Source of the DNA: Escherichia coli
GTDB taxonomy: Bacteria; Pseudomonadota; Gammaproteobacteria; Enterobacterales; Enterobacteriaceae
Length of the DNA stretch: 64,000 nt
NCBI RefSeq assembly: GCF_003334785.1
Contig: NZ_QOWV01000006.1
Direction: 5' to 3' (one strand)
The notes beneath the pieces were generated by a model. It saw only the letters and a list, made by a program, of their open reading frames with translations. It made no database searches and had not been told where the DNA came from. Of the stretch, positions 57,993-58,304 are shown piece by piece. Position 1 is the first letter of the stretch. The number at the start of each line of letters is the position of its first letter. The position numbers and the translations under genes were made by a program.

Positions 57993-58064
57993 GTGCAAGC
58001 AAAGTTGCTACTTTGGACATTAACAGCTTCAATAATGGTAATAATCTTATCTGAGGAGGGCGAA

Positions 58065-58304
58065 GTGGCGGAGCAATTAGAGTTCTTTCCCGTCCAGAGC
58101 CCGTGCCGGGGAATTTGCCAGTCTGACGAACGCGGGTTTTGTCGCGGCTGTTTTCGTAGTCGTGATGAGCGTTTTAACTGGAATAAAATGAGCGATGGCG
58201 AAAAACAAGAGGTGCTGCGCCTTTGTCGGCAGCGATTAATGCGCAAATTACGCGCAAATAAGCCAGCGTCATCAGACGAACCGGAGCAACCATCACTCTT
58301 TTGA
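58065..58304 (+). CDS. ydhL: Small Cys-rich DUF1289-type protein
   Basis: ORF track 136 aa (57894..58304) judged over-extended; GTG 58065 preceded by GAGGAG gives 79 aa, as I recall for YdhL; an in-frame ATG at 58035 is an alternative; motif C-x3-C-x8-C-x2-C. Confidence 0.7.
   Translation: MAEQLEFFPVQSPCRGICQSDERGFCRGCFRSRDERFNWNKMSDGEKQEVLRLCRQRLMRKLRANKPASSDEPEQPSLF

Follow-up and report, generated by a model that had tools for sequence, protein, structure and literature searches.

In Escherichia coli, clamp-binding motifs are carried by Pol II (QLGLF), UmuC (QLNLF), DnaE (QADMF), the N-terminus of Hda (QLSLPL) and MutL (QPLLIP). The clamp is also a target of small proteins: YabA of Bacillus subtilis, a small zinc-binding protein, binds DnaN and DnaA and restrains initiation, and the SocB toxin of Caulobacter and eukaryotic p21 (through its PIP box) occupy the clamp cleft by a short motif and block polymerase access under stress. 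The same cleft is an antibiotic target. The clamp-binding consensus QL[S/D]LF has been revised to Q-phi-x-[L/M]-[F/L], and the bacterial clamp interactome is deemed incompletely mapped (10.1101/2025.08.20.671105).

The protein considered here, YdhL, is a conserved orphan for which we found no solved structure or described function. It is a full member of Pfam DUF1289 (PF06945), which corresponds to the COG 'predicted Fe-S protein YdhL', and is the E. coli protein that gave the family its name. The DUF1289 model covers the core of four cysteines and helix only, so that the QLEFF and Q-x-x-L-F motifs at the YdhL termini lie outside it, and these terminal motifs appear in no family description that we found. 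Like the E. coli clamp binders, the YdhL family carries Q-x-x-[LM]-F in a flexible end of the chain, frequently as the last C-terminal residues. Unlike YdhL, the E. coli proteins with clamp motifs have no DUF1289 domain; YdhL, for its part, has no enzymatic domain and has proline at position 2 of its motif, and its binding is predicted. The likeness to YabA is one of concept (about 100 amino acids, a cysteine-rich metal site, helices and a proposed place on the sliding clamp), and a test for homology between the two proteins found none. SocB and p21 are unrelated to YdhL in sequence, and YdhL overexpression was protective, not toxic, in the one available screen.

Our best overall explanation, to which we assign a probability of roughly 0.55, is that the feature encodes a 79-aa, GTG-initiated YdhL that acts as a metal-containing, clamp-docking adaptor. 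The findings on start codon and domain confirm an existing annotation and were already known; the most informative functional clue is the pair of terminal motifs, which the preliminary description of this DNA had missed. The features are listed in Table 1, with positions in the window, by which we mean the entire stretch of 64,000 nucleotides that was analysed.

Table 1. Features at and around ydhL. Positions refer to the window except where MG1655 is named.
Feature	Position	Strand	Remarks
nemR, divergent neighbour	57363..57962	-	CDS
TTG opening the mechanical 136-aa ORF	57894..57896	+	Spurious; antisense inside the nemR CDS
Palindrome TAGACCAGTCGGTCTA	57977..57992		Kept in 16/17 aligned genera
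Putative ydhL promoter	58005..58033	+	-35-like TTGCTA 58005-58010, 17-nt spacer, -10-like TTCAAT 58028-58033
ATG, in-frame candidate start of an 89-aa form	58035..58037	+	Judged not to be the start
Shine-Dalgarno GAGGAGG	58053..58059	+	5-nt spacer to GTG 58065
ydhL CDS	58065..58304	+	GTG start, 79 aa and TGA stop; RefSeq CDS (L001 3266-3505)
ydhL in MG1655	1725681-1725920 (MG1655)	minus	'DUF1289 domain-containing protein YdhL', b1648
N-terminal QLEFF, residues 4-8	58074..58088	+	Possible second clamp-type motif or structural strand
DUF1289 domain, residues 12-57	58098..58235	+	Pfam PF06945, E = 3.1e-19, model 1-46 of 47
Cys14-x3-Cys18-x7-Cys26-x2-Cys29, putative metal site	58104..58151	+	Invariant in 76 diverse homologues
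C-terminal QPSLF, residues 75-79, candidate beta-clamp-binding motif	58287..58301	+	Conservation island, family enrichment
ydhF (aldo-keto reductase), downstream	58353..59249	+	48 nt past the ydhL stop

The feature corresponds to E. coli ydhL (b1648), a real gene whose annotation predates this analysis; the identification as YdhL made from the sequence in the preliminary description is borne out by the RefSeq and MG1655 annotation and by the DUF1289 match. Window and MG1655 coordinates were interconverted by their constant sum (window position + MG1655 position = 1783985). Many E. coli chromosomes share a 701-bp region around the gene at 100% identity, and the locus was matched in all 5426 of 5426 complete E. 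coli genomes, with coverage of at least 80% in 5404. Beyond the species, 1316 representatives were homologous to YdhL at E <= 1e-3.

To place the translation start, we compared 80 loci orthologous to ydhL, drawn from named genomes that include Escherichia, Citrobacter, Salmonella, Kosakonia, Buttiauxella, Lelliottia, Atlantibacter, Erwinia, Yersinia and Photorhabdus. In 80/80 of them a start codon aligns with 58065 (69 GTG, 9 ATG and 2 TTG), and the reading frame that it opens is exactly 79 aa long in 80/80. Because start codon and length are kept in every locus and conservation begins at this point, we place the start at GTG 58065, an assignment that, together with that of the DUF1289 domain, we regard as close to certain. 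The protein alignment, which included over-long database versions of 87-136 aa, shows the onset of conservation to be abrupt: it begins at V/M-AEQLEFFP, upstream residues are unalignable, and nothing before residue V58 of the 136-aa ORF is conserved. Consistent with this register, 88 of 113 called proteins among the family representatives clustered at 50% identity have the glutamine of the N-terminal motif at residue 2-5. A GGAG, GAGG or AGGA core lies at -20 to -4 in 72/80 orthologous loci. In E. coli itself the stop TGA lies at 58302-58304, and the Shine-Dalgarno sequence ahead of GTG 58065 can be read directly, as the preliminary description had noted; GTG with its strong Shine-Dalgarno as the better start is backed by the 80 loci, RefSeq and MG1655. 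The earlier description of the start as ambiguous does not hold, since the orthologues resolve to GTG, and upstream stops or the lack of any upstream start codon exclude the longer form in most genera.

That longer form, an 89-aa protein from ATG 58035, could in principle be what E. coli actually produces, or a second isoform there: the ATG shares the frame and no stop codon intervenes, a PGAP ydhL pseudogene fragment was begun at the equivalent ATG in one strain, databases contain 89-aa calls, and upstream transcription on the same strand, discussed below, is possible. We consider this very improbable. No purine-rich Shine-Dalgarno precedes ATG 58035, as had been observed from the sequence at the outset, and this ATG is missing outside part of E. 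coli: its equivalent is GTG in another E. coli (L004), which has a stop at -51, and E. albertii and E. whittamii have an in-frame stop at -24. Across the 80 loci, an in-frame stop lies within 30 nt upstream of the 79-aa start in 34, in some just 3-12 nt away, and no in-frame ATG, GTG or TTG lies between the upstream stop and the 79-aa start in 44. Between genera the ten extra residues cannot be aligned, and the 89-aa calls from other genera are unrelated extensions. The ATG also directly follows a conserved -10-like element, so that the proximal transcript probably starts downstream of it. The 89-aa, 125-aa and 136-aa database versions are therefore best described as over-extended ORF calls, and an NCBIfam scan of the 89-aa and 136-aa versions returned no meaningful family. 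The 136-aa ORF had rightly been called implausible, its upstream part being unconserved; it had been placed in the nemR upstream region, and its TTG in fact lies inside the nemR coding sequence, in antisense. The two starts predict different N-terminal tryptic peptides, (M)AEQLEFFPVQSPCR for GTG versus MVIILSEEGEVAEQLEFFPVQSPCR for ATG, and the 89-aa form alone has the N-terminus MVIILSEEGE and the segment VIILSEEGEVAEQ. ydhL was not among the entries of the TRAINSPOTTER N-terminomics supplements.

The DNA upstream of the gene is conserved in a different manner. An alignment of the nemR-ydhL spacer from 17 genera showed a non-coding pattern of conserved blocks, comprising the nemR start codon, the palindrome, TTGC, CTTCAAT, and the Shine-Dalgarno with the ydhL start. 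Conservation among orthologues upstream of 58035, which the preliminary description had raised as a question, is thus present in the DNA only, as regulatory blocks, and absent as coding sequence. We take the palindrome to be the NemR operator. TTGC (58005-58008) is invariant in 17/17 genera, and six of the seven positions of CTTCAAT (58027-58033) are invariant, the middle C being G in two genera; the blocks stand a fixed distance apart, and the sequence of the spacer is free. From its layout, the arrangement of TTGC, 17 nt and TTCAAT appears to resemble a -35/-10 pair. If these blocks form the promoter, transcription is therefore predicted to start at about 58038-58042 (MG1655 about 1725943-1725947), downstream of ATG 58035. 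A scan of 57850-58450 against a strict sigma70 consensus called no promoter, and the supplements of Cappable-seq and ROSE list nothing near 1725945.

Transcription from farther upstream on the ydhL strand is possible. A published sigma54 ChIP site lies at 57675-57691, oriented toward ydhL, and an RNA-seq compendium (PMC10392735 supplement) lists a weak minus-strand fragment at 1725939-1726014 (window 57971-58046) in a noisy table of 'other transcripts'. We considered a sigma54 promoter as the explanation of the invariant TTGC and rejected it, the published sigma54 site being a different element, inside nemR. Mutations in the ydhL-nemR intergenic region have been reported in honey-adapted isolates (10.1101/2020.10.13.337063).

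The protein itself consists of a short conserved N-terminus (M-A-E-QLEFF), the DUF1289 core, and a variable, low-confidence tail that ends in an invariant P-x-QPSLF-COOH. All 76 of 76 diverse aligned homologues match DUF1289 and no other family, and in these homologues P13, C14, C18, C26, C29, R31, E35, W39 and R57 are invariant. The preliminary description quoted the peptide CRGICQSDERGFCRGCFRS, which matches the sequence, and read in it a C-x3-C-x8-C-x2-C motif; the motif is real and family-wide, with a central spacing of x7 instead of x8 (residues 14, 18, 26 and 29). The 3/7/2 spacing is found in 131/138 family representatives. A fifth cysteine, Cys54, is invariant in a 26-sequence enterobacterial alignment, and family-wide its position is cysteine in 91 representatives and leucine in 18, and so not invariant. 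An AF2 model of YdhL (mean pLDDT 82.5) has a core, residues ~10-65, at about 90, in which a cysteine knuckle with short bridges is followed by, and packs against, a helical hairpin of helices 33-41 and 44-65, the second of them strongly basic (LRLCRQRLMRKLRANK). The termini are of low confidence, with pLDDT 63 for the N-terminal block and 61-74 for the tail.

The invariance of the four cysteines across 76 diverse homologues makes a metal or Fe-S site a reasonable reading, and the motif is plausibly a metal site. The kind of metal is less constrained. Recognised Fe-S cysteine spacings include CX2CX2CX3C and CX3CX2C; CX3CX7CX2C differs from these and, to our knowledge, matches no canonical Fe-S motif. 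YdhL matched no Fe-S Pfam family, and in the literature searched we found no experimental report of Fe-S in purified YdhL. The label 'predicted Fe-S protein YdhL' in source annotations is itself a prediction.

The four cysteines might instead form a purely structural zinc knuckle in a small basic nucleic-acid-binding protein that lacks a redox role, for instance a factor of transcription or of the nucleoid. The AF2 model places C-x2-C just before a helix, with a hairpin preceding, the second helix is highly basic, and one family member matches a Myb/SANT profile. Searches of the PDB by phmmer and by profile returned only a spurious designed-repeat match and, as the sole match of this kind, the TRIM5 B-box zinc finger: the YdhL stretch C-x7-C-x2-C-x-R-S-x-E aligns weakly to TRIM5 B-box 2. 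This alignment is non-significant (E = 0.14), has no structural match, and differs in ligand spacing. No similarity in sequence or structure to a solved zinc finger (zinc ribbon, treble clef or B-box) was found, and structural comparison found no solved structure resembling the YdhL fold. We consider the structural-knuckle reading possible and lean against it.

The clamp-docking reading draws on the termini. The terminal peptides that bear the motifs are ASSDEPEQPSLF and MAEQLEFFPVQ, and the C-terminus is DEPEQPSLF. Among 78 distinct Enterobacterales orthologues, mean identity over residues 73-79 (P-x-QPSLF) is 0.94, versus 0.65 for residues 61-72. Across the family, where the tails are biased in composition and probably disordered, the pattern Q..[LMI]F occurs in 58 of 124 tails, compared with 3.1 +/- 1.7 (maximum 11) in 1000 composition-preserving shuffles, and the reversed pattern occurs once. 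Of the [LMI]F dipeptides that the tails contain, 72% are preceded by glutamine at the corresponding position, a 9-fold enrichment. The positions that the pattern leaves free are themselves constrained: position 2 is mostly hydrophobic (L, F, A or I), and position 3 is D or S in 73 of 97 motifs, compared with 0.15 in the background (p = 2e-39). At position 4, 77 motifs have L and 16 have M (93/97). The family consensus at the free positions thus matches QL[S/D]LF, and the exact sequences QADMF, QLNLF, QLGLF, QLSLF and QLDLF are present among family members. In E. coli QPSLF, positions 1, 3, 4 and 5 fit the consensus, and proline stands at position 2, where the revised form wants an aliphatic residue.

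The tail motif is also placed as an exposed docking peptide might be, being conserved amid variable, low-pLDDT surroundings and therefore in a segment that appears flexible. Depending on the family member, it lies anywhere between about residue 75 and residue 239; 38 of 97 motifs form the very end of the protein, and in many proteins it is present in two to four copies, at differing distances from the domain. Vibrio, Oceanospirillales, Cardiobacteriaceae and Neisseriaceae all belong to the branch that bears the motif. A strict tail motif is absent from about half of the representatives, among them truncated or frameshifted calls as well as short members in which both terminal motifs are missing. 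We also considered that the tail might mimic the SSB C-terminus, an acidic tail ending in F, and rejected this, as many family motifs are internal and not C-terminal.

At the other end of the protein, Q..[LMIF]F is found in 113 of 138 representatives, compared with 4.8 +/- 2.2 after shuffling, in the variants QLEFF, QLELF and QGELF (Q-x-x-[LF]-F). It lies 10 residues before the first cysteine in 111 of the 113, and because this register to the domain is fixed, the N-terminal motif may be structural and not a docking peptide. Short representatives without the tail motif tend also to lack the N-terminal one; co-occurrence of the two motifs was not significant (Fisher p = 0.37).

We put the odds near even on the proposal that the Cys4 knuckle binds metal (Zn or an Fe-S cluster) and that QPSLF is a DnaN clamp-binding motif. 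Clamp docking by YdhL-type DUF1289 proteins is to our reading a previously unreported proposal, and judged from the sequences it stands at about an even chance. The literature searched showed no link of YdhL or DUF1289 to the clamp and no physical interaction. An AF2 model joining DnaN, a linker and the YdhL tail left DnaN unfolded (mean pLDDT 47) from a shallow alignment in which the receptor homologues were all at least 87% identical; we attribute the unfolded DnaN to homologues that are too similar. The wider proposal, that the gamma- and beta-proteobacterial YdhL branch is an unrecognised family of sliding-clamp binders, built of a Cys4 module, a basic helix and one to four Q-x-[D/S]-[L/M]-F tethers and coupling oxidant or electrophile damage to control of replication and repair, is tentative, and we rate its chance slightly short of even.

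The genomic neighbourhood would fit another function. RefSeq gene order runs gloA, nemA and nemR on the window's minus strand, then ydhL, ydhF and sodC on the plus strand. Among the 80 loci, a same-strand YdhF match lies 3' of ydhL in 69, and in 67 no more than about 120 nt separates it from the ydhL stop; no terminator-like site was found between ydhL and ydhF. The RNA-seq compendium (PMC10392735 supplement) reports sodC-ydhF-ydhL as one operon or transcription unit, and a gene call in the S. bongori AFDB entry fuses YdhL to YdhF. ydhL and ydhF, with sodC in E. coli, are very probably co-transcribed. Adjacency of nemR and ydhL is kept in Escherichia, Citrobacter, Salmonella and Kosakonia; in Lelliottia and several species of Buttiauxella and Cedecea about 1.8 kb intervenes, and the Photorhabdus locus has none of the E. 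coli neighbours of ydhL.

YdhL could accordingly be a stand-alone Fe-S or redox protein serving YdhF or the NemR/NemA/GloA electrophile response, its tail motif having nothing to do with the clamp. Variants of this reading would make the protein an electron carrier, a metal donor or a sensor, and the tail a binder of some other partner or a degradation signal. The adjacency to ydhF in Enterobacterales, the operon call and the S. bongori fusion all speak for it, as do the divergent nemR with its conserved putative operator, the Fe-S wording of the source annotations, and the protection from H2O2 and HOCl conferred by overexpression. Nevertheless, we think it rather unlikely. The link to ydhF is confined to Enterobacterales, and the genes next to distant members that share the termini are unrelated; around five distant homologues we found neither a conserved partner nor a replication operon. 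The 3/7/2 spacing is that of no canonical Fe-S motif known to us, the QL[S/D]LF-like free positions of the tail motif are left unexplained, and no reason is offered for ciprofloxacin sensitivity. What speaks against clamp docking is that the ydhL neighbourhoods contain no replication genes, the stable partner being the aldo-keto reductase.

Under the preferred reading of YdhL as a clamp-docking protein, it would be a small metal-containing adaptor or plug that enters the hydrophobic cleft of the clamp, between domains II and III of DnaN, via QPSLF. The N-terminal QLEFF might fill the second cleft of the clamp dimer, bridging both. Clamps on DNA would thereby gain an oxidant-sensitive cysteine/metal module and a basic helix, and YdhL would modulate the access of polymerases and repair factors during oxidant, electrophile or quinolone stress. 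This coupling of stress to the clamp through YdhL is speculation. The terminal motifs nonetheless supply YdhL with a concrete, testable hypothesis, that of DnaN clamp binding. If it is true, YdhL would be a new conserved small clamp binder with a redox-sensitive-looking putative metal site, of relevance to replication, repair and persistence, and could be seen as the conceptual equivalent, in proteobacteria, of YabA, SocB or p21.

A role under stress from DNA damage or oxidants would agree loosely with published screens. Among Keio mutants, 37 were confirmed as ciprofloxacin-sensitive, and the ydhL deletion is in this set alongside uvrD, nfo, ruvA, ruvC and recN (PMC13131330); overexpression of ydhL from the ASKA collection gave resistance to 6 mM H2O2 and to HOCl (PMC8228696); both phenotypes come from high-throughput screens in which ydhL was not individually complemented. 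ydhL has also been called essential, by TraDIS only (PMC5821084), a call that the existing Keio mutant contradicts, as does a ydhL gene naturally interrupted by IS1.

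The nemR-ydhL intergenic DNA contains a promoter-like pair of elements, TTGC and CTTCAAT, whose spacer is fixed in length and free in sequence across 17 genera. Judging from this pattern of sequence conservation, the pair is likely the ydhL promoter, although a strict consensus scan did not call the element at 58005-58033. The ATG at 58035, the rejected start of an 89-aa product, lies directly 3' of the -10-like CTTCAAT. A sigma54 binding site found by ChIP-seq (IA14; PMC4591121) lies further upstream, and if it is active, a long leader that includes this ATG would be expected.

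Features in and around ydhL (window coordinates unless stated otherwise)
Feature	Position	Strand	Remarks
sigma54 site CTGGTTCAGTGTTTGCT	57675-57691	+	within nemR, antisense; oriented toward ydhL
Perfect palindrome TAGACCAGTCGGTCTA	57977-57992		between nemR and ydhL
Promoter-like pair (putative)	58005-58033	+	TTGC invariant, 17-nt spacer, CTTCAAT near-invariant (17 genera)
Two terminator-like matches (hairpin and T-run)	58131-58169	+	inside ydhL coding sequence, at Cys26-Cys29 codons
Extra nemR-ydhL DNA in relatives	roughly -100 to -1800, counted from ydhL		loci L012, L013, L016, L018, L020, L025, L026, L028, L034, L037, L038, L040, L043, L060

The palindrome is kept in 16 of the 17 genera in an alignment of the intergenic DNA and is presumably the NemR operator. 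Mutations in the ydhL-nemR intergenic region have been described in honey-adapted E. coli isolates (10.1101/2020.10.13.337063). In Lelliottia, several Buttiauxella and Cedecea species, and relatives, approximately 1.7-1.8 kb of extra DNA separates the two genes. The terminator-like matches within ydhL probably arose by chance, since the number seen deviates from that expected in shuffled sequence by no more than about two standard deviations.

In the natural isolate E. coli USDA-ARS-USMARC-51688, ydhL is split by an IS1 element (536-1582 of locus L090), and the gene is therefore dispensable in this strain, which contradicts a TraDIS-only call of ydhL as essential (PMC5821084). PGAP called the 5' pseudogene fragment at this locus from the equivalent of the 58035 ATG.

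Among the YdhL/DUF1289 proteins, P0001, an 87-aa E. coli representative of a cluster of six sequences, carries an 8-residue in-frame tandem duplication (RGICQSDE) within the Cys4 motif, through which the knuckle gains a fifth cysteine. Three representatives of 131-133 aa (P0199, P0235, and P0255) each contain a tandem pair of DUF1289 Cys4 modules and have neither terminal motif. The 394-aa Salmonella bongori protein S5N7T4 (AFDB) is annotated as a single aldo/keto reductase with YdhL as its N-terminus, reflecting either a YdhL-YdhF fusion through loss of the stop codon or merged annotation. One Erwinia aphidicola assembly has ydhL on two scaffolds (L068 and L069), with identical upstream sequence and ydhF/ydhK neighbours in both, reflecting either recent duplication or assembly redundancy.
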